60,297 nt of DNA from Candidatus Omnitrophota bacterium (GCA_013202525.1 JABMQS010000002.1:1-60297); one strand, 5' to 3'; shown: positions 6,534-60,113, numbered from the stretch's first letter. A program made the numbers and translations. Notes: a model not told the origin generated them from the letters alone.

Positions 6534-6644
6534 AGAGACGTTTACCAAACCAAGCACGAACCTGCCTGTCCTCCGAAGCCCGACCGTATATTCTGCGCAA
6601 AAAGGGCGTAGGGGGATCCCAGATTTGTTCGGGAACCTGTCCCC
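6534..6644. repeat. Repeat family A, long form (copy A1)
   Basis: The sequence AGAGACGTTTACCAA...CCAAGCACGAACCTGCCTGTCCTCCG...GGGGGATCCCAGATTTGTTCGGGAACCTGTCCCC aligns along its length with 38584-38726. It is the reverse complement of the short forms at 30158-30243 and 35344-35401. Confidence 0.85.
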
Positions 6645-8513: not shown

Positions 8514-8553
8514 TGTACCGTTTGCGATTCCCTGCCTGCCGGCAGGCGTGCGC
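8511..8553. repeat. Repeat family B (copy B1): a stop-codon-containing GC-rich palindromic element
   Basis: TAGTGTACCGTTTGCGATTCCCTGCCTGCCGGCAGGC is identical over 37 nt to 35250-35286. It contains the palindrome GCCTGCCGGCAGGC and begins with the mnmG stop codon. Confidence 0.85.
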
Positions 8554-9566: not shown

Positions 9567-10561
9567 CGAATACATGTGAACATAAAGATTGTAAGCGGCG
9601 GCCATTGAGCCTTTCGGATTTCTGCTGGAGGCATATAGAGGATAAGAATGCCTACCGGCAGGAGCTTACCGATTATATCAGCACATCAGGTTCCATAAAG
9701 GATTTCTGCCTTCGCCGTCTGGAGTTTCCTGAGGCAGAATGGCAGAGCATAGATGCCGAAGGCGCAGATCTGGGCCTTGCTGATCTCGCCGGCGCAGATC
9801 TTACTGCCGCAAACCTGAAGGGTTCAAATCTTATCGGTGCAAATCTCCAGCAGGCGAATATGGCAAGCGTCGATCTGGAAGGCGCGCATCTTTTAAAAGC
9901 AGACCTGTCCGGCGCGCGCCTTTGGAACGCGCATATAAAGGACGCGACACTTGCAGAGGCAAATTTTCAAGAAGCCGACTTCTTAAAGGCGACACTCTCC
10001 GGAGTGCGGTTCTGGCATGTAAAGCTTGAGAAGGCAAAGTTCCTTACAAGGCATAATTTCATAGGCGATAAACCCATAGATGAGAAGGGCCTTCTGTCCG
10101 CGGGCGAGGCATATCGCAACCTGAAACAGCATTTTATGTCGGAGGGGAGGTATGATGATGCAAGCTGGGCTTCTTTTAAGGAGAAGCAGCTCGAGAGAAG
10201 GCAGCTCTTCAAAAGCAGGAAGCTGGCCTATATACCTTCGCTTCTTATGGCTGGACTGTGCGGTTACGGCGAGAAGCCCTATCGGGTAGTCATCTCTTCA
10301 GCGGTTCTCATATCATTATACAGCTTCGTCTATATCAGTTTAGGAGTACTGCATATTCCGGAAAGCTATGTACGCGGCGGCCTCAACTTTTGGGACTACT
10401 TGTATTTTAGTATTGTCACCTTTACGACAGTAGGCTTTGGAGATCTGGTACCTGTGCCTGTGCCCCTTTTTCAGATGCTTGTGGGCTCCGAGGCATTTAT
10501 AGGCGTCTTTATGATGGGCCTGTTTATATTTACCCTGGCGCGTAAGCATGCCGCGCGGTAA
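9563..10561 (+). CDS. Pentapeptide-repeat protein fused to a two-TM K+ channel pore
   Basis: The N-terminus has a Cys/His cluster (CEHKDCKRR...CWRH). Residues ~65-160 are A(D/N)LxG-type pentapeptide repeats. The C-terminal pore has the selectivity filter TTVGFGD. The ATGA start/stop overlap with the antiporter gene indicates translational coupling. Confidence 0.8.
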   Translation: MTNTCEHKDCKRRPLSLSDFCWRHIEDKNAYRQELTDYISTSGSIKDFCLRRLEFPEAEWQSIDAEGADLGLADLAGADLTAANLKGSNLIGANLQQANMASVDLEGAHLLKADLSGARLWNAHIKDATLAEANFQEADFLKATLSGVRFWHVKLEKAKFLTRHNFIGDKPIDEKGLLSAGEAYRNLKQHFMSEGRYDDASWASFKEKQLERRQLFKSRKLAYIPSLLMAGLCGYGEKPYRVVISSAVLISLYSFVYISLGVLHIPESYVRGGLNFWDYLYFSIVTFTTVGFGDLVPVPVPLFQMLVGSEAFIGVFMMGLFIFTLARKHAAR

Positions 10562-11901: not shown

Positions 11902-12900
11902 ATGGATACAGAGAAGAAGAAAGATAACAGTCCAAAAGGTTTTTCCGATGTATGGATGTTTGTAGCATGCGCCTCCTGCGTTTGTTTCTTTGTTAATTGG
12001 CTCAGGGTAAGCAGGGGCATGTCGATACCGGGCTTTATCGCTCCTTTTGTTATCGGCTTACTGGCCTTTTTCTTCCAGGCCTTTATGCATCAAAGGCCGC
12101 TTATCGAGCTCTATTCAAAAAGCCATCCTTATCGCAAACTGAAACCCTACGGTGTCATCAGCGCATTTTTATTATTTGAGTTTCTTCTTATGTGGGGCCT
12201 TTATACAAAGCAGATCGTTACAACAGGCACAGGCCTTTGCCTTATAAATCTTGTGTTTATCGGATTGATAGTCTACTACCATGCCTTTGTCAGAATGAAG
12301 GTAAGTTTGAGATTTCTGTTTTTGGCAATATTTATACCAATACTGGCGGGCGGCGCGGCACTGGGCCTGGGCAGCTATTTTATGATATTGAAATTTGTTG
12401 TGCCGGCACAGAAGGTAGGCAATGCGGTCTTCTTTAACACTCTCTACTGGATATTGTTCAGCATATTCCTGCAGATGATATGCGAGGAGCCCGCGTTCAG
12501 GGGATATCTCATGCAGAGACTGCTTGAGAAAGGTGAGATCTTTGCCATCGCGTTATCCGCTTCTCTGTTTGCCGCCTGGCGTATCTCTTTTATCATGTTT
12601 ACCGAGCTCAGCATGTCTTTTGTGCTTGTCATGTTCTGCGCGAACCTTATAATGGGCGCCATATTCGCGCTTCTATTTATAAAGTCAAGAAACCTCCTTG
12701 TGGCCATACTCTGTCATGGCCTTATAAACGGTTTCTTCAACAGTCTCTTTGCCCACAGCGCCAATCCGGGCATGAGGGAGTATGTCGAGTTTCTCATCCC
12801 GCAGGGCCAGGGCTATCTTGTCGTGCTTTGGTCTGGCTGTCTCTTTGTGGGTTTGATCCTGCTTACAATTATACCGCGCAAAAAATTTCATGCCTACTAA
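11902..12900 (+). CDS. CPBP-family intramembrane glutamic endopeptidase (CAAX protease-like)
   Basis: This is a polytopic membrane protein with the EEPAFRGY motif, a later FAAWR motif and a HGLINGF motif. Confidence 0.75.
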   Translation: MDTEKKKDNSPKGFSDVWMFVACASCVCFFVNWLRVSRGMSIPGFIAPFVIGLLAFFFQAFMHQRPLIELYSKSHPYRKLKPYGVISAFLLFEFLLMWGLYTKQIVTTGTGLCLINLVFIGLIVYYHAFVRMKVSLRFLFLAIFIPILAGGAALGLGSYFMILKFVVPAQKVGNAVFFNTLYWILFSIFLQMICEEPAFRGYLMQRLLEKGEIFAIALSASLFAAWRISFIMFTELSMSFVLVMFCANLIMGAIFALLFIKSRNLLVAILCHGLINGFFNSLFAHSANPGMREYVEFLIPQGQGYLVVLWSGCLFVGLILLTIIPRKKFHAY

Positions 12901-13525
12901 AGCCGTTATATTCGATATGGACGGGGTCCTGGTCGACAGCATGCGCTATCATGTCCTGGCCTGGCAGAAGACCTTCAGGCCGCTCGGTGTGGATATAACA
13001 GACCATGAGATCTATGCCAGAGAAGGTGAGGCATGGCACAAAAGCACAAAGGACTTCTTAAGGATGGGCGGGTACAGGCCCACGAGACCTTTGGTGGAGA
13101 AGGTCTTTAAGGAAAGGTGCAGGATATTCAAGGAGATATTCAGGCCCAGGATATTTCGCGGCGCAAAAGGCCTGCTGCGGTCATTGAAAAGAGAAGGTTT
13201 TAAATTGGGCCTGGTCACCGCGACTCCGGGTTGGGATGTGAAGAAGATGCTTACGCCCGCTATGATAGAGTTATTCGATGTTATGGTATGCGGGGGCGAT
13301 ACAAAAAAAGGAAAACCTCATCCTGAACCGTATCTCAAGGCATTAAAGAGGCTGAAGATAAAGCCGGAAGAGGCGGTAGTCATAGAGAACGCACCCTATG
13401 GCATAACTTCATGTAAATTAGCAGGGACAAGATGTATTGCTGTCACAACCTCCCTGCCTAAGAAATACCTCAAAGGCGCAGACGTGGTTGTCGATTCGCT
13501 CGCAGAAGTCGCGGATTTGGTTTAG
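12890..13525 (+). CDS. HAD-superfamily hydrolase (beta-phosphoglucomutase-like subfamily IA)
   Basis: Motif I is FDMDGVLVDS, motif II is VTAT, and a late KGKPHPEPY plus a C-terminal acidic motif region are present. Confidence 0.8.
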   Translation: MPTKAVIFDMDGVLVDSMRYHVLAWQKTFRPLGVDITDHEIYAREGEAWHKSTKDFLRMGGYRPTRPLVEKVFKERCRIFKEIFRPRIFRGAKGLLRSLKREGFKLGLVTATPGWDVKKMLTPAMIELFDVMVCGGDTKKGKPHPEPYLKALKRLKIKPEEAVVIENAPYGITSCKLAGTRCIAVTTSLPKKYLKGADVVVDSLAEVADLV

Positions 13526-16851: not shown

Positions 16852-18420
16852 ATGAAGGTATGCCCTAAGTGTTCTGCGCAATATCCTGATATGTGGAATA
16901 TATGCGAAGCCTGCAAGGTCTCACTCAAGAAGGAGGGGCTTTTGCGAAAGGTCTTTGCCAAGCCCCGGCCGTGTCAGGTATCCACGCTCTCCTTGCTTGA
17001 AAATGTTATAGAGCAGTCTGATATAGTATTCCTTTATATCGATAAAGATAAGAGGCCGATGATAGGCAATCAGGCCGTGGAAGATATCCTTGGTTATGGC
17101 AGGGAGGAGCTTTTTAGAGATGACTGGCTCGACCTGCTTTTCAAGGATAAGGCCGCAAGGAAACTCATGTTTAAGGCTTTTCTCGATAGCTGCTTAAGGA
17201 GTATCAAATCGAGAGTTTATGAGTGCAGCGTCATGAAAAAAGACGGCGGGGAGTGCATCTTATCATGGCGAAACGCCGCCGTTACCGATTCATCCGGGGA
17301 TATCTCAGGGATAATATGTACCGCTTTTGATATAACCGAAGAGAAGAGTTCCGAAGATGATGTTGCCATACACTCTGAGCGCTTAAGGAATATCTTTGCC
17401 AGCATAAAGGATTATGCCCTTTTAACAACCAACCTCGAGGGAAAGATAACATATTATGGTAAGGGTACAGCTGAGCTGTTTGGCTGGAAGCAGGATATGA
17501 CCCTTAATGATATAGACCTGATATTTCCGGATGAGGTCAGGCAGAAGACGGCAGAGAGGCTAAAGAAGTCCATCGAGGAATACGGCAAGTTTGAGGGAGA
17601 GGCCATCTTATCGCGTAACAGCCAGGGGAATTTTCCTGCTGAACTTACGGTTACGGGATTACTGGATACGAGGGGCGAGAGAGTCGGTTATATATACGTA
17701 TCAAGGGATATAACCAGGAGAAAAGAGCTGGAGGAGCAGATGGTGCAGTCTGAAAAATTGGCAGCGATAGGCCAGCTCGCCGCCGGTGTGGCCCACGAGA
17801 TAAACAATCCGCTGCTGGTGATCTCGGGCAGGCTCGAGATGCTCACCATGAAGAATGATGATTTTCCCGACGATATCAAGCGTACGCTGGATACCATAAA
17901 GGGCCAGACAGAACGCATGAGGATCATTGTCGACAGACTGCTTTCTTATTCGCGCAGAAAGACGCCGCACATGGATGCGGTGGATGTAAATGAGATATTA
18001 AAGACGGTTTCGCCGCTCCTTGCCTATCACCCTGAGTTTAAGGGCATAACCTGGAAGGAAGAGCATGGAAAAGATCTTCCAAAGATCCACGGTGATTTTA
18101 ATCAGTTGCAGGAGCTGTTTTTGAATATCGGCCTCAATGCGTGCCAGGCCATGCAGAAGAAGGGGGCACTGGCCATAGTCTCCGAGGAGAAAAAGGACGG
18201 TTTTGTAGAGGTGAGGATCAAGGATACAGGGCCCGGTATCAAGAAAGAGGATATGGAGAAGATCTTTAATCCATTTTTTACTACAAAAGATAGCGGAACA
18301 GGTTTAGGGCTTGCCATATGCAATAGCATCATGAATGCCCATGGCGGCAAAATGGATGTTGTGAGTGAGCTTGGTAAAGGAACTACATTTAAACTGTCGT
18401 TTCCTGTTAAAAAGGAGTAA
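16852..18420 (+). CDS. Sensor histidine kinase (zinc-ribbon N-terminus, two PAS domains, HisKA, HATPase)
   Basis: The features are CPKCSAQYPDMWNICEAC, two PAS-like segments, the H-box AAGVAHEINNPL, the N-box LNIGLNACQAM and G-boxes DTGPGI / GTGLGLAI. No TM segment is seen, so it is probably cytoplasmic. Confidence 0.85.
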   Translation: MKVCPKCSAQYPDMWNICEACKVSLKKEGLLRKVFAKPRPCQVSTLSLLENVIEQSDIVFLYIDKDKRPMIGNQAVEDILGYGREELFRDDWLDLLFKDKAARKLMFKAFLDSCLRSIKSRVYECSVMKKDGGECILSWRNAAVTDSSGDISGIICTAFDITEEKSSEDDVAIHSERLRNIFASIKDYALLTTNLEGKITYYGKGTAELFGWKQDMTLNDIDLIFPDEVRQKTAERLKKSIEEYGKFEGEAILSRNSQGNFPAELTVTGLLDTRGERVGYIYVSRDITRRKELEEQMVQSEKLAAIGQLAAGVAHEINNPLLVISGRLEMLTMKNDDFPDDIKRTLDTIKGQTERMRIIVDRLLSYSRRKTPHMDAVDVNEILKTVSPLLAYHPEFKGITWKEEHGKDLPKIHGDFNQLQELFLNIGLNACQAMQKKGALAIVSEEKKDGFVEVRIKDTGPGIKKEDMEKIFNPFFTTKDSGTGLGLAICNSIMNAHGGKMDVVSELGKGTTFKLSFPVKKE

Positions 18421-19511: not shown

Positions 19512-19920
19512 GGGGGCGATTTGGGTTCGACTTAATGTATGGTGGCAATGAGGAGCATGCCGAGGTTGGTCAGTTGGCCTCGTTAAAAGCTGACCAAAAA
19601 CTAAGTGCAGAAAAACTACGCACAAAGGTCATGGAAGTCGTTCCTATTAACACAGGAATGGTTTCTGTGATGCCGTTAGCCGCCTAAAAGCGCGGCTACC
19701 GTCACCTGGCCCTGCCTGCAGGGCCGGATGTGACGCCATTAGCAGGCTAGTCCTGGATCCTTGGCTTTTGGGGTGTAGGATCAAATCTTAAAAAGCTGCG
19801 CCTTCTGACGATCCCTCCTGTGGGAGCCCGGAAGGCTAAGACCAAAACGCAGGATAAGCATGTAGCTTGCCTCTTGCTGTGTACTTAAGGACGAGGGTTC
19901 GATTCCCTCCGCCTCCACCA
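19512..19920 (+). ncRNA. ssrA: tmRNA (SsrA)
   Basis: The 5' end GGGGGCGATTTGGGTTCGAC pairs with the 3' end CGCCTCCACCA, including the G3:U wobble. The T-arm is GAGGGTTCGATTCCCTC. An internal tag ORF ends in ...PLAA-TAA (19685-19687). The gene begins 6 nt after smpB. Confidence 0.9.
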
Positions 19921-22340: not shown

Positions 22341-23093
22341 ATGAACCCCGTAAGAAATTTAAGACATAGCAGGGACTCAAAGATTTCTCACGGGGCAAGC
22401 CCCGTAAGAAATTCAGGACATAGCAGGGACTCAAAGATTTCTCACGGGGCAAGGGCAGTGATTCTTCTTTCAGGAGGCATCGATTCAGGGGCAACATTAT
22501 ATTATGCAAGGCAGAAGGGGTATAAGGTCTTCTGCCTTACCTTTGATTATGGCCAAAGACACAACAGGGAGATAGATTCAGCGCGCAGACTGGCAGAGGC
22601 ATGCGGCGCAGACTGGCGCCTGTTAAAGATCAGCCTGCCCTGGAAGGGAAGCGCCCTGCTTGAGAAAGGAAGAAGGCTGCCGAAGGGTAAGCTCGCGCGA
22701 AAAGATATACCGAGTACTTATGTGCCTGGCCGCAATATCATATTTTTGAGTTATGCGGTCTCGTATGCAGAGGCCATCAAGGCAGAGGCAGTATTTATAG
22801 GCGCCAATCAGATCGACTACAGCGGGTATCCGGACTGCAGGGATTCTTTCCTGAGGGCGTTCGGCGCTGCTGTTAAAAGAGGTACAAAGAAGGGCGTAAG
22901 CGGCCGCGGCATAAGAATAAAGGCGCCATTTATCAATAAGACCAAGTCCCAGATCGTTGCGGCTGCGCTTAAAATGAAGGTACCGATTGAAACCACATGG
23001 TCCTGTTACAGAGGCGGCAGACGCCCGTGCGGCGTTTGTGATTCCTGCCTGATCCGCACAAGGGCCTTTAAGGAGGCAGGTATTTATGGCTAG
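22341..23093 (+). CDS. queC: 7-cyano-7-deazaguanine synthase; the start codon is uncertain
   Basis: The conserved core starts at AVILLSGGIDS, and the C-terminal zinc cluster is CYRGG..PCGVCDSC. The first 39 codons from ATG 22341 are the translated tandem repeat. The in-frame GTG at 22458 would give a canonical-length QueC. Confidence 0.9.
   Translation: MNPVRNLRHSRDSKISHGASPVRNSGHSRDSKISHGARAVILLSGGIDSGATLYYARQKGYKVFCLTFDYGQRHNREIDSARRLAEACGADWRLLKISLPWKGSALLEKGRRLPKGKLARKDIPSTYVPGRNIIFLSYAVSYAEAIKAEAVFIGANQIDYSGYPDCRDSFLRAFGAAVKRGTKKGVSGRGIRIKAPFINKTKSQIVAAALKMKVPIETTWSCYRGGRRPCGVCDSCLIRTRAFKEAGIYG
22346..22453. repeat. Tandem 2 x 54-nt hairpin repeat at the queD/queC junction
   Basis: Copies at 22346-22399 and 22400-22453 differ at 2 positions. 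Each can form a 13-bp stem with one mismatch (CCCCGTAAGAAAT / ATTTCTCACGGGG) around a 24-nt loop. Confidence 0.9.
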
Positions 23094-30025: not shown

Positions 30026-30054
30026 TTGACACAGGATGTATTTTGTGTTATATT
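30026..30054 (+). promoter_or_regulatory. Near-consensus sigma-70 promoter with an extended -10 box for the fused glycine-cleavage gene
   Basis: TTGACA (30026-30031), a 17-nt spacer and TATATT (30049-30054) preceded by TGT are present. This implies a ~190-nt 5' leader before ATG 30255. Confidence 0.6.
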
Positions 30055-30157
30055 ATAAATACCTTTATAAATGGTACACCTTTGTTTCTCACCAAAAACT
30101 CACCTGGCCAATGCGTTTACGTGTTGAGCTATATCTATGTTCAAAAATTATTCAGAA

Positions 30158-30243
30158 GACAGGTTCGTGCTTGGAAACAGGACAGGTTCCCGAACAAATT
30201 GGTAAACGTCTCCAACTGTTAACTACAACTGCTAAAGAATGAG
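30158..30243. repeat. Repeat family A, short form (copy A3), inside the 5' leader
   Basis: GACAGGTTCGTGCTTGGAAACAGGACAGGTTCCCGAACAAATTGGTAAACGTCTCCAACTGTTAACTA...CTGCTAAAGAATGA is present. About 47 nt are near-identical to 35344-35390. It is the reverse complement of parts of 6534-6644 and 38584-38726. Confidence 0.85.
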
Positions 30244-30254
30244 GAGAGTAGGGT

Positions 30255-33200
30255 ATGTTTAAGGTAACTGCGGTTATTACAGCATTAATATTTAGTATAA
30301 CAAGCGTACCAGGGCCGAGCTACATATATAATGATGCGCTTCGAGACATGGCCACTGGAAATGCTGATGGCGCAGGCTCATCAGTGGAAAGAGCGCTGAA
30401 GTCTTCTTCGCAGGGTGATCCCAAGGAGACGGTGCTCCATGACTGGCATGTAACACAAGGTGCAGCCATGGCTGCCTTTGGTGGTTGGGATATGCCGAGC
30501 GTATATACAGACGCCAGAGAAGAGAACCTTAATACTAGAAGGGGTGTCTCTATATTTGATGAGAGCCACATGGGCTTGATAGAGATAACAGGTCCTGATG
30601 CTGCCAGGTTTCTTGCTCACATTTCATCTCCCAATGTTGACCCAGACGGGAGCATAAGAGAATTTAATGACGGGGATGTGCAGTACAGGTTCTTATTTAA
30701 TGAGAGAGGAATACAGATAGATGATATACAGGTTGTAAGGATCGCAGAAGACCATTTCAGGTTAGTGGTAAATGCCTGCAACACAGATAAGGTGGAGCGC
30801 TGGTTAGATGATAACTCCAGTGGTTATGACTGCAGTATTAGAGACCTGCGTTATGTACCCGATCAGACTGAGCAGCGTGTAATATTGGCTGTTCAGGGCA
30901 CCAATGGGGCACAGGATATATTGCAGCTGCTTACTCCTCATGATCTAGACAGCATCGACTATTTTCAGGCTGCTGAAATAGATCTCTTTATCGGCAGGGT
31001 AATACCGCGCGGGCCTGGCGGAAAGCCAAAGTATACGGGAAAGGTCGTGAAATGTCTTGTGCAGAGAACAGGTTATACTGGCGAGGATGGTTTTGAGATA
31101 CACCTTCACCCTGATGATGTGCTGCTTTTCTGGGAAAGTGTTATCAAGCTTGGCGCAAGGCCCGCAGCCCTTCAGGCAAGGGATACATTAAGGGGAGAGG
31201 CAGGCCTTCCTCTTAATGGCCATGAGTGGACAGACGATGATGATGGCCCCATGCCGTGGGAATATAAGTATGCCTTTACAGTAGATACCAGCGAGTCTGC
31301 ATCCTATATAGGGGCAGAGGCGCTACGGAAGAAAAGAGCTAAATCGACAAAGGCATTGGTGGGCATAAGGTTGTCTGATAGGCAGTCGAGGCTGCATGAA
31401 GGGCATAAAGTATTTAATGATGAAGGTAAAGAGATAGGCTATGTAACGAGCGGCTTTTTTTCACCGACACTCGACAGGGGCATAGGCCTGGTCTATATAG
31501 ATAAAGAATTTGCAAATATAGGTACAAAGTTGATAGTGCGGCCTTCACCTGACAGGATGCTTTTTGCAAAGGCTGTAAGGACACCTTTTATAAGCCATAT
31601 CATATCCAGTAGGGGCAGGGATCCAAGAGAGAATGCGCCAAATTATATACCAGGCGGCGATGAGGAAAGGGCACAGAAGCTCGCTCTTGTTAAGAAGAGA
31701 TTTGGTGCTGATTCAATAGAGGCTCTTTTCGGAGACCTGCAGCAGTATTTCCATCAAGGTGAATTGGACCTGCCTGAGCCGGCAGTTAATAACAGGGCGC
31801 TCTTTAGATTGATGTACGGATTGAGCCTTGAAAACAATACCGACCTCTTATCCTTTCGCGGAGCCGGCTGCTACGCTGAAGAGCCTTCTGATCTTGTCGA
31901 TTATCTGATGACGTTAGATGGTTTCGTAACATCATATACCCCGTACCAGCCTGAAGTAAGCCAGGGAACCTTAAGGCTCATGTTTGCCTATCAGTCTCTT
32001 ATGGCAGATCTGCTTAATATGGATGTTGTAAATGCCTCTGTCTATGAAGGGGCAAATGCCCTGGTAGAAGGCGCACGCATGGCAACCAGTATAACCGAAA
32101 AAGACAGGATAGTCGTAGTCGGCGCTATAAATCCCCGCCACAAAGAAGTCCTTGATGAATATGCAAAAAATCTTGGCATCAATGTCTCATATGTTGATCC
32201 TATTGCAGAGACAGGCAGGGTTGATTTAAGAGGGCTAAAGGATGAGATAGATAATGAGACCGCTTCTGTAATCGTGCAGCAGCCAAACTTCCTCGGCATC
32301 GTCGAGGAAGAGATAGACAATATAGCAGATATCGCAAGGGAAAATGGGGCGCTTCTTCATATACACTCAAATGACCCGATGCAATTTGTGTTTCTAAAGA
32401 CCCCTGGAAATCATGGAGCTGATATTGCTACAGCAGAAGCCCAGGCCTTTGTAGGTGAACATTTTTTTGGAGGCACTAATCTCGGTATCGTTGCATGCAA
32501 AAGGAAGCATTTAAGATATATACCAGGACGCTTAGCTGGCCAGACCGTTGATCAAGATGGCAATGATGCCTTTGCCCTGGCATTGGCCCGCAGAGAACAG
32601 TTTGCTGCCCGAAAAAGGGCCACATCCAATATATGCACAAATGTTGCCTTACACGCGGCCCGCGCCGCTGTCTACATGCTCGATAAAGGAACCCAGGGGC
32701 TGAGGTCATCATTAATTCGTTCCGGTGGACATGCGGTATGGTTTGCAGGGCAGGTGCACGATGGCAAGATACCGGGTTTCAGGCTTTTCAGTAATGCCCC
32801 GTATGCACGTGAGATAGTAGTTGAAACAACTATCTCTGCTAAGGAATTACAGCAAGAACTGCTAAAGAGAGGTATCGATGCAGGCACTGATGTAAAAAGC
32901 TACGACTCTTTTAAAAGCAGAAGACATCTCATACAGTTCTCATTCACAACTGCACATACCAGCACCGATAGAAAGGCATTGGCAGATGCCCTTAGGGACA
33001 TATCAAAGGAGCGCAGCCTCAAAGATCTTGATGAATCGCATGCCCAAATGACAGGTGGATCACGCGATCAATTTCGGCAGGATGCACTCAATATACCTGA
33101 GATAGAAGAACCAGATCTAAGAGCGGCATTAAAGGTTTTAAGCGAGCAGAATTTTTGCGTTGAGAAACACCCATATCCTCTCGGCTCCTGCACAATGAAA

Positions 33201-35252
33201 AAGACCCCTAAGGTTAGTTTAAAAGCAGCAAGCGAACGCGGGTTTGCCAGAGTCCATCCCCATGCATTGCCTGAGACAGCTCAAGCGACACTTCAGATTC
33301 ATCATGAGCTTGGTGAATATCTTAAGGAGATAACAGGCATGGACGCAGTATCTCTTAATCCTTCGGCAGGCGCACATGGTGAGCTTGTGGGCATTACAGC
33401 AATATTCAGGTATTTTGAAGACAAGGGTGAGGCCAAACGCAACGTGATTATTACCACAGACTCTTCTCATGGTACAAACCCTGCCAGCGCTGCTATACTC
33501 GAGGCAGAGATAGTACAGGTCAAGACAGATATGGCAACAGGACGCCTGGACATGGCTTCACTTCGGCAAGTCCTTGCTGATCCTAAATACAAAGGCAGGG
33601 TTGCGGCTATAATGCTGACAGAACCCAATACACTTGGGGTGTTTGAGGATTTGGAAGAGGCGGCCCGTTTAGTTCATGAGGAAGGCGGTATGGTCTACAT
33701 GGACGGCGCAAATCTAAATGCCATAGCAGGATGGATCATGCCAGCGGATTTAGGCGTAGATGTCATGCATTTTAATCTCCATAAGACATTCAGCGCGCCG
33801 CACGGCGGAGGCGGACCCGGCGCAGGCCCGGTCGGTGTAAGCGATAGGCGTTACAAGCTATCGGAATTTTTGCCAAACCCAGAGGTGGTTTTGAGAGATG
33901 GCGAATATGCTCTTGCGGATAGAGCACACGGTACAGACATGGGAACCTTTCTTGGCAATACAGCGGTTTCATTGATAGCATATGCTTATATAAGAAGACT
34001 TGGCCCGGAAGGCCTAAAGCAGGCTATCGGGGATGCTCTATTGAATGCAAATTATCTCAAGGCGCGCCTTATGGATGAGTTTGATATGGTCCCTGCTACC
34101 GGTGAGCTTGCGATGCATGAGTTTGTCATATCTTTGGCAAAAATAAAGAAAGAGACAGGATGCACTGCCGATGATTTTAGCAAGGTATTGGAGAACTTTG
34201 GGATACATCCGCCTACTATATATTTTCCTCTGATAGTATTAGAGGCGATGATGTTTGAGCCGACAGAGAGTTTGAGCATAGAAGACCTTGACCGTATAGC
34301 AGACGCGATGATAGCTATAAAGAATCTCGCTTATGCTAATCCGAAGGTGGTAAAAGGCGCACCGTACAGTTCTCCTGAGGCCCTTCGTCACGGACTTACA
34401 GCTGCTCTTATGCAGACACGCCAGTCAGATTATAAGGATGCCAAGGCGCTGTATGCTCACCTGCAGCCAACACCAGTAAGCAGGGTTATTATGGATCCTG
34501 TAAATGACCTTCAGGGTGTTGTTTTAAAGCAAAATAATGTGGCTGCCATTCTTGGTATCAGTGATGAAAGGCTCGTTAGGGAGGCACCTACTGCACCTGA
34601 AACCCCCGAAGAAGAGCTTGAGTACAGAGATCCTGCTGAGGGCTGGAATTCAGATCCAGGGCAGTCTATACCAGTATTTTTCAATCCTAAATATGAGGAG
34701 TTTGACGATTGGTACAGGATAGTGGAAGGCCCTGATGGCAAAAGAATCGCTGTTATAGGTATTCTTAAAAGGAGTTCTGATCTTCTATCCATTGCTGAAA
34801 TAATTTTCGAAAAAAATGTAGGAGAAGAAGTCAATAGAGGTGAGGTATGCTTAGAGTTTGAAGGGGATAAAGCAGATATTGAATTTGAATCTCCTGTAAG
34901 CGGCAAGGTTATAGCAAGGAATGAAGCTGCTGTAGAATATCTGGGTAAAGATAAGGCAGAGCAAGGCACGGATGACCCCTATGGCAGAGGCTGGCTGTTT
35001 GCTATTGAGCTTACCGAGGAGCCAGAGCCTGGAATAGATGTTTTAACTGCTGCTGCGTATGACGAGGCTTTAGAAAAGGCATCCATGCCCGGCGAGGTAA
35101 AATCTGGCCTTGAGATAGCCACAGATACAATAAAGTACCACGCATTTAATGCGGCAAGATACGGCCCTCTAGGCAGTGGCGGGCGCAAAGCCGCCAGCCC
35201 CGGCACTCCTGCACCAGCAGCCGTATCTAAAGCAATCTTATCAGGAGCATAG
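30255..35252 (+). CDS. Fused glycine cleavage system polyprotein: GcvT-GcvPA-GcvPB-GcvH in one 1665-aa ORF with a hydrophobic N-terminal segment
   Basis: The T domain spans ~aa 58-447 (LHDWH..GA.M..FGGW.MP, FDESHMG). PA spans ~aa 462-915 (NYIPGG..., SYTPYQPEVSQGTL). PB spans ~aa 965-1400 (GSCTMK, HGTNPASA, NLHKTF with K1177, PHGGGGPGAGPVGV). H spans ~aa 1476-1612 (EFEGDKADIEFESPVSGKV with K1539, DPYGRGWLF, LTAAAYDEALEK). A GAGGAGAG Shine-Dalgarno lies 6 nt before the ATG. Confidence 0.85.
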   Translation: MFKVTAVITALIFSITSVPGPSYIYNDALRDMATGNADGAGSSVERALKSSSQGDPKETVLHDWHVTQGAAMAAFGGWDMPSVYTDAREENLNTRRGVSIFDESHMGLIEITGPDAARFLAHISSPNVDPDGSIREFNDGDVQYRFLFNERGIQIDDIQVVRIAEDHFRLVVNACNTDKVERWLDDNSSGYDCSIRDLRYVPDQTEQRVILAVQGTNGAQDILQLLTPHDLDSIDYFQAAEIDLFIGRVIPRGPGGKPKYTGKVVKCLVQRTGYTGEDGFEIHLHPDDVLLFWESVIKLGARPAALQARDTLRGEAGLPLNGHEWTDDDDGPMPWEYKYAFTVDTSESASYIGAEALRKKRAKSTKALVGIRLSDRQSRLHEGHKVFNDEGKEIGYVTSGFFSPTLDRGIGLVYIDKEFANIGTKLIVRPSPDRMLFAKAVRTPFISHIISSRGRDPRENAPNYIPGGDEERAQKLALVKKRFGADSIEALFGDLQQYFHQGELDLPEPAVNNRALFRLMYGLSLENNTDLLSFRGAGCYAEEPSDLVDYLMTLDGFVTSYTPYQPEVSQGTLRLMFAYQSLMADLLNMDVVNASVYEGANALVEGARMATSITEKDRIVVVGAINPRHKEVLDEYAKNLGINVSYVDPIAETGRVDLRGLKDEIDNETASVIVQQPNFLGIVEEEIDNIADIARENGALLHIHSNDPMQFVFLKTPGNHGADIATAEAQAFVGEHFFGGTNLGIVACKRKHLRYIPGRLAGQTVDQDGNDAFALALARREQFAARKRATSNICTNVALHAARAAVYMLDKGTQGLRSSLIRSGGHAVWFAGQVHDGKIPGFRLFSNAPYAREIVVETTISAKELQQELLKRGIDAGTDVKSYDSFKSRRHLIQFSFTTAHTSTDRKALADALRDISKERSLKDLDESHAQMTGGSRDQFRQDALNIPEIEEPDLRAALKVLSEQNFCVEKHPYPLGSCTMKKTPKVSLKAASERGFARVHPHALPETAQATLQIHHELGEYLKEITGMDAVSLNPSAGAHGELVGITAIFRYFEDKGEAKRNVIITTDSSHGTNPASAAILEAEIVQVKTDMATGRLDMASLRQVLADPKYKGRVAAIMLTEPNTLGVFEDLEEAARLVHEEGGMVYMDGANLNAIAGWIMPADLGVDVMHFNLHKTFSAPHGGGGPGAGPVGVSDRRYKLSEFLPNPEVVLRDGEYALADRAHGTDMGTFLGNTAVSLIAYAYIRRLGPEGLKQAIGDALLNANYLKARLMDEFDMVPATGELAMHEFVISLAKIKKETGCTADDFSKVLENFGIHPPTIYFPLIVLEAMMFEPTESLSIEDLDRIADAMIAIKNLAYANPKVVKGAPYSSPEALRHGLTAALMQTRQSDYKDAKALYAHLQPTPVSRVIMDPVNDLQGVVLKQNNVAAILGISDERLVREAPTAPETPEEELEYRDPAEGWNSDPGQSIPVFFNPKYEEFDDWYRIVEGPDGKRIAVIGILKRSSDLLSIAEIIFEKNVGEEVNRGEVCLEFEGDKADIEFESPVSGKVIARNEAAVEYLGKDKAEQGTDDPYGRGWLFAIELTEEPEPGIDVLTAAAYDEALEKASMPGEVKSGLEIATDTIKYHAFNAARYGPLGSGGRKAASPGTPAPAAVSKAILSGA

Positions 35253-35295
35253 TGTACCGTTTGCGATTCCCTGCCTGCCGGCAGGCAGGCGTGCT
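35250..35295. repeat. Repeat family B (copy B2), containing the stop codon of the fused GCS gene
   Basis: TAGTGTACCGTTTGCGATTCCCTGCCTGCCGGCAGGC is identical to 8511-8547. Here the palindrome is extended to CCTGCCTGCCGGCAGGCAGG. Confidence 0.85.
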
Positions 35296-35300
35296 CAAAT

Positions 35301-35336
35301 AAGATTAACGCTGTCCCCGGGGACACTGTTAATCTT
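35301..35336 (+). promoter_or_regulatory. Long imperfect hairpin between the two large genes
   Basis: AAGATTAACGCTGTCCCC pairs with GGGGACACTGTTAATCTT, giving an 18-bp stem with 2 mismatches and no loop spacer. No U-tract follows, so it may be a processing or stabilising element, or a terminator. Confidence 0.4.
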
Positions 35337-35343
35337 GTAAAAA

Positions 35344-35401
35344 GGGACAGGTTCCCGAACAAGTTGGTAAACGTCTCCAACTGTTAACTAGCTGGTAAAG
35401 A
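35344..35401. repeat. Repeat family A, short form (copy A4), immediately upstream of the 1057-aa gene
   Basis: GGGACAGGTTCCCGAACAAGTTGGTAAACGTCTCCAACTGTTAACTAGCTGGTAAAGA matches 30180-30238 with a few substitutions and one small indel. Confidence 0.85.
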
Positions 35402-38400
35402 ATGATGAGAAAGATAATTGTATACTTAATAACGCTTATTTTTGCGCTTAACACCACATGGACAGGGCATGCTGTAGAGCATGCCCTGAGTCATCGCGGG
35501 ACTCTGCGCCCACTTGCTACGGCAAGGAGCCCTTTGGCATTTTTAGACAGGACTATGAGCGAGGCAGCAGCAGCGGCTATATCTGCTGAAACCGGGATAA
35601 GTCAGGCCGTTATACTAAGGCTAACTGAGATAAAACTCCTCTACATTGATGAGATGGGCGGCATATCTGATGAAGATACAAAGCTACTTAAAGATGTGTC
35701 AGAAGAGTGGCCGGATGAGCTTATCAAGCTCATAAGAGTCAGGGATTATCTTGGGTTCAGTAAGACCAGACTGAGAAGATGTAAAGCAGCCTTGGGCATA
35801 GTCTATGCAGGAATAGAAGATCGAATTGCATTGGTCAAGAAAGATGTTGCACATGACCTGTTGCTAAGGGAGCTTCTTTACAGGGCGCATATGTACACAC
35901 GGAAAGAAGTTGCCGATTTGTTTGGTTATAAGCAGGCTGTGGAGCGACTTATTAACAATGGCCAGCTTCCCAAATTTGAGGATGAGATCAACAGGGGGTA
36001 CTTCAAGAGAGTGGTGGATAGACTGGTGAGTGAAAGAAGAGATGGTGTGCGCCAGCTTATTCCAAGCGGGTGGCTATTGGCCAGGGATATATTGGCAAGG
36101 ATCAATTCGAAATTTCCAGACGTTACCAAGGTACAGATGGAAGGTGTCTTAGGAGAGACGGAAGCCAGCCTTAAGGTAGGGGTGAAGGACCCGTATATAA
36201 GAAAGACACGGTGCGGGTATCATCCATCAGTAGCAGAGCATTGCATGGATGTATTTGAAGTAAGGGATATAGAGACCTCAGGCCCCGCTGGTCTTGCCAG
36301 GGTAAAAGAAGATGTTTATTATAAAATATCGTGGGCTGCAAAGGCACTGGGCATCAATCACATTACATTGTTACAGCGATATCACAGCGGAAAGCTGATA
36401 GGTAAAGGAGGCGGAAGGGCTGGAGCAACCATACGCATAAAGGGCAGTGAGATACAGAGGCTTCGTGGCATAAACCTGGAGCAAGCAAGATTACTAAAGG
36501 CCGGAGAGCTTCATACTGCCTATGGGTTGTGCAATGCCTATAGGATAAATAAGGATACAGAAATGGCTATCTATAAGATGCCTATAAGGAGGGTAAGGCC
36601 GGGATATGCACTGCTCAGATTTGGGAATAGGTGGATTCCTATTTTTGAGGACTACCTGGATCTTATTCATATACCAGAAAGTTCTGTCGCTCTATTGCAG
36701 GGAGTAGAGAGGTTTATTTTGCCGACAGAGATAGCAGAGTATACAGGGCATGAATACGCAGAGATCTGCAGGCTTGCAGAAACCAGGGGCATACTTTTGA
36801 GAGAAGGCAGGAGTGAACCTGAGATCAGAGATTATACTCTGGGCGCTCTATTTATGGAAGACGAAAACGGGAGAGACCCAGCCTCAGAGAACTTCAGCCA
36901 GTTTTGCGATAGCGAGAAAGAGGCCTTTTTAAAGAGATATCCATTTATGGCAGAGGTATTGACCAAAGCTGTAAAACCCGATCTTTATAGGACAATACCG
37001 CTCTCCCTGACAGGCCTTGACAGCAATATCGAGAGATTGCGCATGCTCAGTATCTATGAGGAGGCCATAAGAAGAGGAGAAGTGGGCATGTCGCATACTA
37101 TCTCCTTATATATGAGTCAGCTGGCAATGGTAAGGGAGCTTATCCGTTTTGGTTATGTGACCAGGGCTGATTTACGCGATATAGAACATCAGCTCGCCCT
37201 GGATCGCATTGAGGAGATTTTTGCGGACATATATGAGTTGATGAAGGGGGATATCAGTCGAGTCAAACCAAGAGACCTGTATACCTTGTGTGAACGCTAT
37301 TACTTTACACCGCAACGGCTTGATGCTTTAGTCCATAAGGCGTCCCGGGTAGATAGAGTACTCGAGGCTCAAGAAGCATATGCGGGTTTTAGGGTCTCTA
37401 ACGGTAATGTGGTGATAATAGCAGAAGACGGGGCAACGACTGAAATACCACTTAACGGGAATGGGACTGCAGGAAACAATGCATCTGCGGACAGGCCCGC
37501 TTCAGACGCCAGTGTAACGATAAAGTCAGGCACCGCTGCCCCCCTGAAAACAGCGAGTGCAGGGGATGTTGCAGAACAGATCTGGGGCGGCAAGCTCGAA
37601 CCTGTCTGGGCTGAGAATATAGATATATCTGTGTTTGTTAAACTGCTCGAGCTCTGCCAGTGTGATGTGCTAGACCTTCAATCTGGCAAGTTTAAAGGAA
37701 ATCAGTTATATACACAGATAGAAGACAGACTTGCCCAGATATTTGTGGTCTCTATTGTCAATGCAGCCAGAAGAGATGAGAGATTTGCGCACCTTGACCT
37801 TGATCTTATCGAAAGAATATTATGCGCAAGGGGCCTTTGGGGCACACGCCCTGATGAGATGGCTGACTATTTGAATGGATTGGCGCAGAGCGCGGCTGAG
37901 GCCGACGAAAATGCCAGCGCCGCTCTTTCAGAGATGAGCGAATTTATTCGATTTGCCTTGAGCATAAAGTATCAAGCCAAGATCTACACGCAGAGGAATC
38001 GGGAGAGGTATAACCATATAGGTATTCCGAATATCCTTAATTCTATCTTGTGCTCTACCTTTTACAACTTAAGATTGGATACCAATGGTTTTCCAGGGGC
38101 ATTCGATGGGATCGATAGTGTGGTAGATGATGTAAAGGTCGCCGATGAGATTGTAGAAAGTGTCAGTAATCTTTGGAAGAAGGTTGATAGAGGCGGTGTG
38201 GTGGATAATGCCAGCAAAAAGTTCGGATATAAACGCCTGTTGGCGCTCTGGCCGTATTATTTTGAGATTGTCGAGGCCCAGATGAGGGGGTTGCGTGGAC
38301 AAAGAAGCATTATGGCCGCGAAATATTTAGATAGCCATTTTAGTTATAATCCTACCCTAGCGGAAGAGCCGCTGCATCGGGAAGGAAGATTAGAGCATTT

Positions 38401-38575
38401 CAATCTTGAACCCCTGTTGCAATGTGACTGCCTGCTTGCATTTGGCTGGGGCCCGGTATATGCCGGGGCTTATGAAGCAACCCCCCGCAAGGCTTTAGCT
38501 GCAAGAGACATGCCCAGCACCCCCTTATCATGTGGTTCCCCAACAACCCATCGCGCCATCCTATCCGCTGCGTAA
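35402..38575 (+). CDS. Large hypothetical protein (1057 aa) with a hydrophobic N-terminus and several degenerate HTH-like (excisionase/MerR-type) segments
   Basis: This is a long uninterrupted ORF. The N-terminus MMRKIIVYLITLIFALNTTWTGHA looks like a signal peptide or anchor. Recurring segments have the form xTxxExAxxLGhxxxxhxRhxxxGxL (for example YTRKEVADLFGYKQAVERLINNGQLP and YKISWAAKALGINHITLLQRYHSGKL). I recognise no catalytic family. Confidence 0.5.
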   Translation: MMRKIIVYLITLIFALNTTWTGHAVEHALSHRGTLRPLATARSPLAFLDRTMSEAAAAAISAETGISQAVILRLTEIKLLYIDEMGGISDEDTKLLKDVSEEWPDELIKLIRVRDYLGFSKTRLRRCKAALGIVYAGIEDRIALVKKDVAHDLLLRELLYRAHMYTRKEVADLFGYKQAVERLINNGQLPKFEDEINRGYFKRVVDRLVSERRDGVRQLIPSGWLLARDILARINSKFPDVTKVQMEGVLGETEASLKVGVKDPYIRKTRCGYHPSVAEHCMDVFEVRDIETSGPAGLARVKEDVYYKISWAAKALGINHITLLQRYHSGKLIGKGGGRAGATIRIKGSEIQRLRGINLEQARLLKAGELHTAYGLCNAYRINKDTEMAIYKMPIRRVRPGYALLRFGNRWIPIFEDYLDLIHIPESSVALLQGVERFILPTEIAEYTGHEYAEICRLAETRGILLREGRSEPEIRDYTLGALFMEDENGRDPASENFSQFCDSEKEAFLKRYPFMAEVLTKAVKPDLYRTIPLSLTGLDSNIERLRMLSIYEEAIRRGEVGMSHTISLYMSQLAMVRELIRFGYVTRADLRDIEHQLALDRIEEIFADIYELMKGDISRVKPRDLYTLCERYYFTPQRLDALVHKASRVDRVLEAQEAYAGFRVSNGNVVIIAEDGATTEIPLNGNGTAGNNASADRPASDASVTIKSGTAAPLKTASAGDVAEQIWGGKLEPVWAENIDISVFVKLLELCQCDVLDLQSGKFKGNQLYTQIEDRLAQIFVVSIVNAARRDERFAHLDLDLIERILCARGLWGTRPDEMADYLNGLAQSAAEADENASAALSEMSEFIRFALSIKYQAKIYTQRNRERYNHIGIPNILNSILCSTFYNLRLDTNGFPGAFDGIDSVVDDVKVADEIVESVSNLWKKVDRGGVVDNASKKFGYKRLLALWPYYFEIVEAQMRGLRGQRSIMAAKYLDSHFSYNPTLAEEPLHREGRLEHFNLEPLLQCDCLLAFGWGPVYAGAYEATPRKALAARDMPSTPLSCGSPTTHRAILSAA

Positions 38576-38583
38576 TCTAATCT

Positions 38584-38726
38584 GGAGATGTTTACCAATC
38601 CAAGCACGAACCTGCCTGTCCTCCGTAGCCCCACCGGAGAATCCGCATGATAGGGCGCAGGGGGATCCAGAATTTGTTCGGGAAACTGTCCCGTTTCCAA
38701 GCACGAAACTGTCTGGTCTCCTGTCC
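38584..38726. repeat. Repeat family A, long form (copy A2), directly after the 1057-aa gene
   Basis: GGAGATGTTTACCAA-[74-nt insert CCAAGCACGAACCTGCCTGTCCTCCG...GGGGGATCCAGAA]-TTTGTTCGGGAAACTGTCCCGTTTCCAAGCACGAAACTGTC is present. Its flanks are the reverse complement of A3, and its insert matches A1. Confidence 0.85.
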
Positions 38727-60088: not shown

Positions 60089-60113
60089 ACCTGCCTGCTG
60101 TCAGGCGCAAACA
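60089..60113. repeat. Possible degenerate third copy of repeat B just after the last stop codon
   Basis: ACCTGCCTGCTGTCAGGCGCAAAC compares with CCCTGCCTGCCGGCAGGCGTGCGCAAC in B1. It forms the small hairpin GCCTG-CTGT-CAGGC. Confidence 0.4.

Follow-up and report, generated by a model that had tools for sequence, protein, structure and literature searches.

The window analyzed here, the complete 60,297-nucleotide contig of a Candidatus Omnitrophica MAG, carries two large neighboring genes on the plus strand, ORF1 (30255..35252; 1665 aa) and ORF2 (35402..38575; 1057 aa), together with four copies of a modular repeat, three of which occupy consecutive spacers around the two genes. Upstream of ORF1, at 30026..30054 (+), there is a predicted near-consensus sigma-70-type promoter (TTGACA, 17 nt, TATATT, with a TG) that rests on consensus match only, with 11 of 12 positions matching. 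It lies ~100 nt upstream of the first repeat copy, so this copy is predicted to fall inside a 5′ UTR of ~190 nt. Judged from its sequence, ORF1 is a T-PA-PB-H fusion of the glycine cleavage system with Pfam domains and homologues (P0003-P0007), in which a signal-like N-terminus, an LR box, and the motif LKSSSQG are followed by glycine-cleavage T, P-alpha, P-beta, and H, and by a tail ending in KAILSGA. Its Omnitrophota relatives, which add further enzymes, likewise have the signal-like N-terminus and LR box, show KASSAG at the junctions between enzyme modules, and end in a short S/T-x-A tail. ORF2 combines a signal-like N-terminus, which includes TLRP, with HTH_17-like repeats and a tail ending in RAILSAA. 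A word-index search for its homologues returned only ORF2 itself, and a full HMMER search gave 11 remote matches, mostly to a helical domain (approximately residues 720 to 1010) that it has in common with other large proteins. The AlphaFold model of this domain (all-helical, pLDDT 66) had no PDB fold match at an E value of ≤0.001 (best E = 1.3), and ORF2 had no NCBIfam match.

An earlier note on this DNA had described an element upstream of both large genes, an interrupted reverse complement after ORF2, and hence inverted flanking repeats with an internal copy. All of these copies were found in place, with ~0.03 chance matches expected, and a fourth, distant copy was found in addition. Copy 1 (30157..30212, +), in the presumed 5′ UTR of ORF1, is a solitary arm composed of units A (30158-30174), B (30180-30197), and C (30199-30212), with 23 nt from the start of A to the start of B and a DNA fold z score of -0.17. 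It runs into a 30-nt extension (30212..30243, +; CCAACTGTTAACTA..CTGCTAAAGAATGA) that is common only to copies 1 and 2 and carries the ATG of a 7-codon uORF (30239-30262), which overlaps the ORF1 start. Copy 2 (35301..35377, +) consists of a palindrome in which a diverged A unit is joined to an inverted counterpart (35301-35336), followed by B (35345-35362) and C (35364-35377); its own 30-nt extension (35377..35405, +) matches that of copy 1, and the ORF2 start codon, an ATG at 35402, falls inside it. Aligned over ~66 nt, the two copies differ by 3 mismatches and a single 2-nt indel, and the alignment goes on, more weakly, through the diverged A unit. The extension was found neither elsewhere in the window, the two reverse copies included, nor in the relatives of the repeat from other genomes.

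The two reverse copies are long forms. Copy 3 (38585..38721, -) starts 10 nt past the ORF2 stop and comprises A (38697-38713), B (38674-38691), an insert of ~54 nt, A′ (38600-38616), and C (38585-38598); its arm at 38671-38714 and that of copy 1 at 30157-30200 are 93% complementary over 44 nt. Copy 4 (6535..6643, -), which was absent from the earlier note, has B (6625-6642), the insert, A′ (6550-6566), and C (6535-6548), and lacks the outer A. It is located 23 kb from the ORF1-ORF2 block beside unrelated genes, in the spacer that separates the stop of a GAF-ANTAR gene (6528) from the start of mnmG (6663), and is 80 to 90% identical to the copy at 38585-38692, insert included. The spacer between ORF1 and ORF2 is a mosaic in which the diverged-A palindrome and the rest of copy 2 are preceded by a member of another repeat family, 43 nt long and containing the GC hairpin CCTGCCTGCCGGCAGGCAGG (35249..35291, +), immediately past the ORF1 stop. 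Its twin lies past the mnmG stop, at 8510-8552.

The modules of the repeat are the 23-nt units A (GACAGGTTCGTGCTTGG) and B (GGGGACAGGTTCCCGAACAA...), A being a diverged paralogue of B, and a terminal CGTC-containing unit C of 12 to 14 nt (TTGGWAAACGTCYC). One or two 23-nt direct units closed by C make up an arm, and two arms placed head to head make up the full element; tandem units always begin 23 nt apart, as A and B do in the window, and the insert of ~54 nt is conserved in the long-form copies. Unit B opens with GGGGACAG in copy 4 and in five related loci (L008, L015, L018, L023, and L029), and with GGGACAG or GGACAG in copies 1 to 3. CGTC is present in unit C of three of the four window copies, with CATC in the remaining one, and is kept in the relatives, where, as here, it stands at the outer arm end with no adjacent stem and no GTAG tag. 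The window copies are no more stably folded than shuffled sequences (z from -1.3 to +1.0), and the full inverted doublet at locus L018 folds into a structure of -47.9 kcal/mol (z = -11.8); solitary arms are thus not the self-folding, 20- to 40-nt imperfect palindromes of classical REPs, and only inverted doublets fold. It counts against a RAYT-type assignment that the single units, unlike classical REPs, are not palindromic, given that a Y1 transposase normally recognizes a hairpin. Two other repeat types were dismissed by eye: CRISPR, because the spacing is irregular, and the integron attC site, defined by RYYYAAC/GTTRRRY cores in an imperfect palindrome at the 3′ end of short promoterless cassettes near intI, because the units are direct repeats rather than palindromes of that type and the genes are 3 to 5 kb long with a predicted promoter of their own.

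Matches to the units in the window are far above expectation, with 4 for the 18-mer B unit at ≤3 mismatches (0.03 expected), 5 for A (0.10 expected), and 4 for C (0.28 expected), and chance therefore does not explain the copies. We found the same architecture in intergenic spacers at ~16 loci of other Omnitrophota or PVC assemblies. A scan of 185,579 genomes with the exact 18-mer gave ~35 matches at chance level and nine loci in Omnitrophota or "Planctomycetia" MAGs at which the flanks matched too (tandem B units, then GGAAACGTC(T/C)C). A metagenome scan gave nine chance matches in coding sequence and seven further true copies, a minimum, since the pattern used (GGWAAACGTC) excludes the commonest variant, GGAAACGTC. 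The clusters were intergenic in 21 of 21 cases, counting two that overlap only long computed ORFs, which we take to be spurious extensions. They occur in both orientations, also relative to codirectional neighbors, and beside unrelated genes that include housekeeping genes, such as the purL-like gene adjoining the repeat at locus L008. One related MAG has copies on four contigs, at 2 to 8 units per 8 kb. The window itself has four copies in 60 kb, all extragenic; four visible copies in one contig make "high copy number" an extrapolation.

A link to a transposase is provided by two of the relatives (loci L023 and L024), in which an ORF of 160 to 161 aa is enclosed by arms in inverted orientation, [C′ B′ B′] on one side and [B B C] on the other, which adjoin the gene so closely that the repeat even overlaps the stop codon. 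The encoded proteins match the Pfam family Y1_Tnp (E = 7e-12 and 8e-17), and their best NCBIfam match is the "REP-associated tyrosine transposase" NF047646, at 78 and 75 bits against a cutoff of 80; their sole PDB match is the TnpA-REP protein of E. coli (4ER8). Against the assignment stand these scores, just short of the curated cutoff, and, in the L023 protein, HVR instead of the HUH motif. A tblastn search with the two RAYT-like proteins found no transposase gene in the 60-kb contig, and the transposase link therefore rests on the relatives.

We consider it probable, at about 75%, that the repeat is a dispersed, modular, noncoding family of the RAYT/TIRYT type in Omnitrophota, and thus an ordinary genomic repeat rather than a dedicated regulatory leader or the boundary of a mobile cassette. 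Repeats of this kind are short DNA sequences that spread through, or together with, an IS200-like Y1 tyrosine transposase. In related Omnitrophota/PVC genomes, solitary arms or arm pairs are scattered in the spacers between transcription units. The window copies, which are solitary or rearranged arms, are located in four of the ~12 sizeable spacers. Copies 1 and 2 belong to the same subvariant (an arm plus 30 nt), and we infer that they arose by local duplication or conversion of ~65 to 90 nt involving the 5′ regions of the two neighboring genes, whose proteins may be of the same class. Transcripts probably include the copies, with copy 1 in the 5′ UTR of ORF1, copy 2 between the cistrons, and copy 3 just past the ORF2 stop, and by analogy with REP and MITE elements elsewhere, they may incidentally affect mRNA stability or translation. 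The earlier note had set a generic REP/MITE against its own proposals, and dispersed copies in both orientations are essentially what we found.

The proposal made in that note, that the arm and its 30-nt extension form a common 5′ control region, as RNA or protein-binding DNA, coupling the expression of ORF1 and ORF2, perhaps with pairing to the 3′ copy, appears unlikely. It draws on the ~66 to 90 nt common to the two upstream copies right up to the start codon, with the ORF2 ATG inside, on the near-consensus promoter that would place copy 1 in a 5′ UTR, and on the uORF; at locus L053, moreover, a pair of neighboring genes of the same protein class likewise have the RBS region and the first 15 codons in common. 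That shared stretch, however, is a sequence other than this element, and the same units are also present in reverse orientation behind stop codons and next to unrelated genes, 23 kb away in the case of copy 4. No B unit was found upstream of the ORF1 orthologues at loci L051, L052, and L053. The covariance-model check that the note had suggested, run on the whole window at the Rfam gathering threshold and in three E-value scans at the repeat sites, detected only tmRNA and one tRNA; it placed no family at the three sites and found no glycine riboswitch, and a single subthreshold match to a plant miRNA (E = 0.97) was discarded as noise. With no Rfam match, no structure of their own (z of ~0), and both orientations relative to transcription, the copies do not resemble a structured cis-regulatory RNA, and the idea of a gene-specific leader was not sustained. 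As for the panhandle suggested for the 5′ and 3′ copies, the pairing itself is strong (-91.5 kcal/mol, against -43.8 ± 4.7 for shuffled sequences), but this energy follows automatically from the copies being inverted, and a functional role of the panhandle found no backing.

The same inverted copies could be taken as the ends, at 30157 and 38721, of an 8.5-kb composite element that brought in ORF1 and ORF2, as the note's alternative of a mobilized cassette would have it. The flanking arms, 93% complementary, and the association of the family with a transposase are what such an element would show, and the latter part of the alternative stood. The polarity, however, is reversed: C units face outward around the transposase gene in the relatives and inward around ORF1-ORF2, which places both genes outside the element ends. 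There are also the internal third copy and the distant fourth, no transposase or integrase gene within the block or next to it, no flanking direct duplication seen, and a G+C content of the block equal to that of its flanks, with no compositional island in the composition profile of the window, so that we regard cassette ends here as highly improbable. ORF2 had no orthologue in the word-index search, synteny around the ORF1 orthologues is not conserved, and for these reasons no empty site was found. It seems only slightly less improbable that the repeats are immobile binding sites of a host protein (a nucleoid protein or the operator of a regulon) selected at many spacers. The strict 23-nt tandem spacing corresponds to about two helical turns, the element is located in spacers independently of orientation, and the adjacent ORF2 has the HTH_17-like repeats, a weak match (E = 2e-4) below the cutoff. 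However, ORF2 is without orthologues in the repeat-carrying genomes, the copies are rearranged, truncated, and mosaic in the manner of decaying mobile repeats, and the inverted copies flanking a Y1 transposase gene in two genomes are a hallmark of REPtrons and TIRtrons.

While the dispersed RAYT/TIRYT-type family remains our preferred reading of the repeat, the location of three of the four copies in consecutive spacers around ORF1-ORF2 and the shared 30 nt that reach the start codon and supply the ORF2 ATG leave room for local co-option. The similarity of the protein termini pointed out earlier was confirmed, both proteins having a hydrophobic start and ending in AILSGA or AILSAA, and it extends to a conserved protein-level signature. 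We therefore put forward, tentatively and as somewhat doubtful, that ORF1 and ORF2 belong to an undescribed class of Omnitrophota multienzyme "polyproteins" with a shared sorting or processing signature, and that a repeat-derived 5′ segment was co-opted for their translation start. The signature would consist of an invariant LR(P/A) box behind the signal-like N-terminus, a near-invariant K-A-S-S-A-G junction between enzyme modules as a candidate processing site, and a short tail at the C-terminus with the pattern hydrophobic-x-(S/T)-x-A, which resembles a ligand of PDZ domains or tail-specific proteases, or an ssrA-like end. A profile of nine N-terminal leaders returned nothing at an E value of ≤10 from 5.8 billion proteins, and so yielded no further members on which to check the C-terminal tail independently.

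These findings would extend RAYT/TIRYT-type repeat systems to Omnitrophota, of which we found no mention in the top-ranked literature on REP, RAYT, and REPIN elements, and they caution annotators that conserved "leaders" in compact Omnitrophota genomes can be repeat arms. The protein-end signature may be of more interest than the DNA repeat. If proteins are in fact processed at the KASSAG junctions, these would be the cleavage points whose absence has held up the analysis of giant proteins in Omnitrophota, and it would then have to be asked why an export-type signal is attached to a complete, cofactor-dependent glycine cleavage system. As far as the available parts of two preprints go (bioRxiv 10.64898/2026.06.07.730766; 10.1101/2023.11.21.568195), ORF1, a multienzyme fusion with a signal-like N-terminus, resembles the long multienzyme signal-peptide proteins described there for Omnitrophota, although ORF1 and ORF2 are far shorter than the catalogued proteins of at least 10,000 aa; in those parts we found neither the LR box nor the KASSAG junctions nor the C-terminal tail mentioned.

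Among known repeats, MITEs in 5′ and 3′ UTRs, such as the Correia/NEMIS elements of Neisseria and ERIC, are likewise short and noncoding with inverted ends, are cotranscribed with their neighbors (as is probable here), and could supply start-proximal sequence, but they are mobilized by DDE enzymes and leave target-site duplications, and we saw neither here. The repeat is closer to the REP/BIME elements with their RAYT (E. coli TnpA-REP, 4ER8) and to the REPINs of Pseudomonas, being extragenic and multicopy, often a few nucleotides from stop codons, mosaic and modular as BIMEs are, with inverted doublets that fold into long hairpins and a single-copy-type Y1 transposase gene flanked by repeats. 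It differs from REPs in that its units are not imperfect palindromes, the GTAG tag is absent, and solitary arms offer the transposase no local hairpin. The conserved CGTC at the outer arm end (ACGTCTC or ACGTCCC) recalls the CGTC-tagged REPs; published ones are stem-loops of 8 to 9 bp with the CGTC unpaired, reported without a dedicated transposase (PMC3733652), whereas the CGTC unit here lies, with no adjacent conserved stem, in an inverted repeat that flanks a tyrosine transposase gene. TIRtrons are RAYT-like tyrosine transposase genes set between long terminal inverted repeats; some of these repeats make up dispersed families of moderate abundance, and a subset has the motif GGGGWSAS (Di Nocera et al. 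2013, PMC3733652). The present family departs from them in its phylum (Omnitrophota/PVC), in an arm built of 23-nt tandem units and a CGTC-containing terminal unit, in the conserved insert of ~54 nt in its long forms, and in a transposase seen only in relatives and not in this contig. It shares with TIRtrons a Y1 transposase of ~160 aa between inverted repeats of ~58 nt in the relatives, intergenic copies that are single, dimeric, or clustered, and the GGGGWSAS motif, represented here by GGGGACAG.

The repeat is built from three units, each occurring in the window far more often than expected from dinucleotide shuffles: unit A (GACAGGTTCGTGCTTGG; 5 matches with up to 3 mismatches versus 0.10 expected), unit B (GGACAGGTTCCCGAACAA; 4 matches with up to 3 mismatches versus 0.03), and unit C (TTGGTAAACGTCTC; 4 matches with up to 2 mismatches versus 0.28). 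Copy 1 (30157-30212, plus strand, A-B-C) lies 43 nt 5′ of the start of ORF1, the fused glycine-cleavage gene. Copy 2 (35345-35377, plus strand, B-C) lies 25 nt 5′ of the start of ORF2 and follows a palindrome (35301-35336) with a diverged A unit as its right arm, and copy 3 (38585-38721, minus strand), a long form reading A-B-insert-A′-C, begins 10 nt 3′ of the ORF2 stop codon. The sequences that the earlier note described upstream of both genes, and inverted 3′ of ORF2, were therefore found where it had placed them. It did not report copy 4 (6535-6643, minus strand, B-insert-A′-C), which begins 7 nt 3′ of a GAF-ANTAR gene's stop codon, lies 20 nt 5′ of mnmG, and is 80 to 90% identical to copy 3, the approximately 54-nt insert included. 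The repeat thus extends beyond the two-gene block. Three consecutive spacers around the block hold three of the four copies, a clustering for which a plain generic repeat does not account; given some twelve spacers of more than 60 nt, we estimate it post hoc to be about a 1-in-5 event.

The B unit, an 18-mer with a single two-fold degenerate position, was searched by exact match in 185,579 genomes (596 Gb), each from a different species. This gave 50 loci versus approximately 35 expected by chance according to our own calculation; most of the loci lie in coding regions of unrelated bacteria and have dissimilar flanks. Matching flanks were found at nine loci, five in MAGs of Omnitrophota and the other four in a single "uncultured Planctomycetia" MAG, and all nine carry a tandem pair of B-like units followed by GGAAACGTC(T/C)C, often adjoined by an inverted partner arm. 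A metagenome scan yielded seven more copies. Tandem units are exactly 23 nt apart from start to start in every case, including A to B in the window. All 21 repeat clusters, found in 17 sequences, are intergenic; where the neighbouring genes are co-directional, clusters are found in either orientation. The neighbours include housekeeping genes, and clusters sometimes lie directly 3′ of a stop codon, sometimes directly 5′ of a ribosome-binding site, and sometimes upstream of a promoter.

At two loci from other assemblies, L023 and L024, inverted arms enclose an ORF of 160 to 161 aa in the order [C′ B′ B′] ORF [B B C], with the downstream arm abutting or overlapping the stop codon. Both ORFs match the Pfam family Y1_Tnp of IS200-like transposases (E = 7e-12 and 8e-17). 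Their best NCBIfam model is "REP-associated tyrosine transposase" (78 and 75 bits, just below the cut-off of 80), and their sole match among solved structures is E. coli TnpA-REP (4ER8). The L023 protein (1553-2038, minus strand) has HVR in place of the HUH motif and, judging from this substitution, may be inactive; the L024 protein retains HVH and has the tyrosine of the Y-x-x-x-N-P motif.

The earlier note had proposed that the shared upstream sequence could be a regulatory or RNA leader of the two genes. A near-consensus promoter is predicted at 30026-30054 (TTGACA, 17 nt, TATATT, with TG), from which we infer that copy 1 would lie within a roughly 190-nt 5′ UTR of ORF1. The ORF1-ORF2 spacer has no promoter-like site, and its two hairpins (z = -3.6) have no T-run, suggesting that ORF2 is probably co-transcribed with ORF1, which would place copy 2 in the intercistronic region and copy 3 at the 3′ end of the transcript. 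The occurrence of the repeat in both orientations and beside housekeeping genes argues against a gene-specific leader, as does the lack of a B unit 5′ of ORF1 orthologues on three further contigs of Omnitrophota. In the window, the copies are solitary arms with no fold of their own, folding no more stably than shuffled sequence (z from -1.3 to +1.0); the full inverted doublet of locus L018, folded as single-stranded DNA, reaches -47.9 kcal/mol (z = -11.8). Rfam scans of the three repeat sites, up to E <= 1, matched no family, and no glycine riboswitch was found by Rfam scan 5′ of ORF1. As for a panhandle, the 5′ and 3′ window copies are indeed computed to pair strongly as RNA (-91.5 kcal/mol versus -43.8 +/- 4.7 for shuffles), but this follows automatically from their being inverted and is uninformative on function. 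Neither the regulatory leader nor the panhandle is supported.

The inverted copies around the block had also been taken as possible boundaries of a mobilised cassette. The polarity of the arms speaks against this, as the C units point outward around the transposase gene but inward around ORF1-ORF2, and ORF1 and ORF2 therefore lie outside the ends of the element. No mobility gene was found with the block, and its G+C content (0.46 to 0.475) is unchanged from that beside it (0.46 to 0.47). The cassette is not supported either. Synteny around the ORF1 orthologues is not conserved. The orthologue at locus L051 is flanked by two copies of a palindromic repeat of another kind (9706-9815 and 17121-17193; CTTCAGGGACGTTG...CAACGTCCC), which has similar ends (GGGACGTTG...CAACGTCCC) and no other copy in 18.8 kb; we read this as repeats settling where long spacers, which are few, separate transcription units.

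Copies 1 and 2 have another 30 nt in common, ending with, and including, an ATG. In copy 2 this ATG serves as the start codon of ORF2; in copy 1 it opens a 7-codon uORF, MRRVGYV (30239-30262), the stop codon of which overlaps ORF1 codons 2 and 3. A plain generic repeat does not account for this extension either. We attribute it to duplication or conversion on a local scale, involving the 5′ regions of two neighbours that belong to one gene class. A parallel is seen at locus L053, where two adjacent giant genes (1849 and 2491 aa) have approximately 75 nt in common (7290-7450 and 12866-13026; MFKKFTAILVSWAFL) that span the ribosome-binding site and codons 1 to 15, which suggests 5′-end conversion among genes of the ORF1/ORF2 class. 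The repeat-derived segment at the ORF1 and ORF2 start sites may have been co-opted as a translation-initiation region.

ORF1 (30255-35252; 1665 aa) combines glycine-cleavage T, P-alpha, P-beta, and H domains in a single polypeptide with a signal-like N-terminal extension, approximately 55 residues N-terminal to the GcvT domain that are absent from GcvT proteins. A search of 5.8 billion proteins found only five relatives with comparable fusions, three of which carry the label Omnitrophota or Omnitrophica in their sources, and all five have extra glycosyltransferase, dihydrolipoyl dehydrogenase-type, alanine dehydrogenase, or PutA-type modules. All full-length members have a hydrophobic signal-like start, an invariant LR (mostly LRP or LRA), and a short C-terminal tail (e.g., AIDSAA, DIDSSA, EIDTAA, AIKAAA, and AILSGA). 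The hexamer KASSAG occurs five times at module boundaries in three proteins from three assemblies (P0004 at 258, 1915, and 2314; P0006 at 1597; P0007 at 1301) and never in 150,000 residues of other retrieved proteins. It is a candidate processing or linker motif; ORF1 has LKSSSQG at residues 48-54, directly N-terminal to GcvT.

The similarity noticed earlier between the ends of the ORF1 and ORF2 proteins holds, as both have hydrophobic N-termini, the LR pattern (...GTLRPLATA... in ORF2), and the tails AILSGA and AILSAA, respectively. ORF2 (35402-38575; HQ558_00360 in the protein collection) has no orthologue that we could find. Its 11 relatives are remote and linked to it by a helical domain in its interior, and 3 of them also have short tails of this kind. 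The N-terminal half of ORF2 contains several HTH_17-like (excisionase/MerR-type) segments and can be aligned to a repeat region in the 1337-aa protein P0125, which is unexpected given the export-type N-terminus of ORF2. The same two ends recur on four consecutive large genes of L053. In a set of 132 ORFs, none shorter than 150 aa, from 20 Omnitrophota-type loci, the N-terminal pattern goes together with the tail (6/1/3/122; Fisher p = 9e-8), although the motifs were defined post hoc and this overstates the case, and an independent profile search with the N-termini matched none of 5.8 billion proteins. Earlier preprints describe Omnitrophota proteins that combine several enzymes and have signal peptides (bioRxiv 10.64898/2026.06.07.730766; 10.1101/2023.11.21.568195), one of these preprints stating their cleavage points as unknown; the accessible portions of both mention neither the LR box, KASSAG, nor the C-terminal tail. 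That KASSAG, an LR(P/A) box after a hydrophobic N-terminus, and a short S/T-x-A tail mark a class of large Omnitrophota proteins is a lead from sequence comparison, not a result.

The window also holds a second repeat family, 43 nt long and beginning at the stop codon, at 8510-8552 (mnmG), 35249-35291 (ORF1), and possibly 60090-60106. It contains a GC hairpin (CCTGCCTGCCGGCAGGCAGG) and, having no T-run, is not a canonical terminator. Directly 5′ of a QueC-like coding region, two tandem copies of a 54-nt sequence (22346-22453; 96% identical) form one hairpin each (RNA fold -38 kcal/mol, z = -4.9), with no Rfam match, preQ1 riboswitches included. The tmRNA gene (19512-19920) encodes a long 26-residue tag (AEKLRTKVMEVVPINTGMVSVMPLAA), the end of which, ...LAA, is similar to the small-residue tails of the large proteins.

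We consider it likely, at roughly three chances in four, that the repeat belongs to a known kind of modular repeat, dispersed and linked to a transposase, with the link itself seen in its relatives. Enclosure of a transposase gene by its own repeat, as in L023 and L024, is what defines REPtrons and TIRtrons. Di Nocera et al. (PMC3733652) described RAYT-like genes with long terminal inverted repeats instead of classical REP hairpins; some of these inverted repeats form dispersed families with GGGGWSAS as a common motif. Read together with the Gs before it, the B unit (GGGGACAG) fits this TIRtron motif exactly, and on this reading a repeat of the RAYT/TIRYT type is newly seen here in the phylum Omnitrophota.
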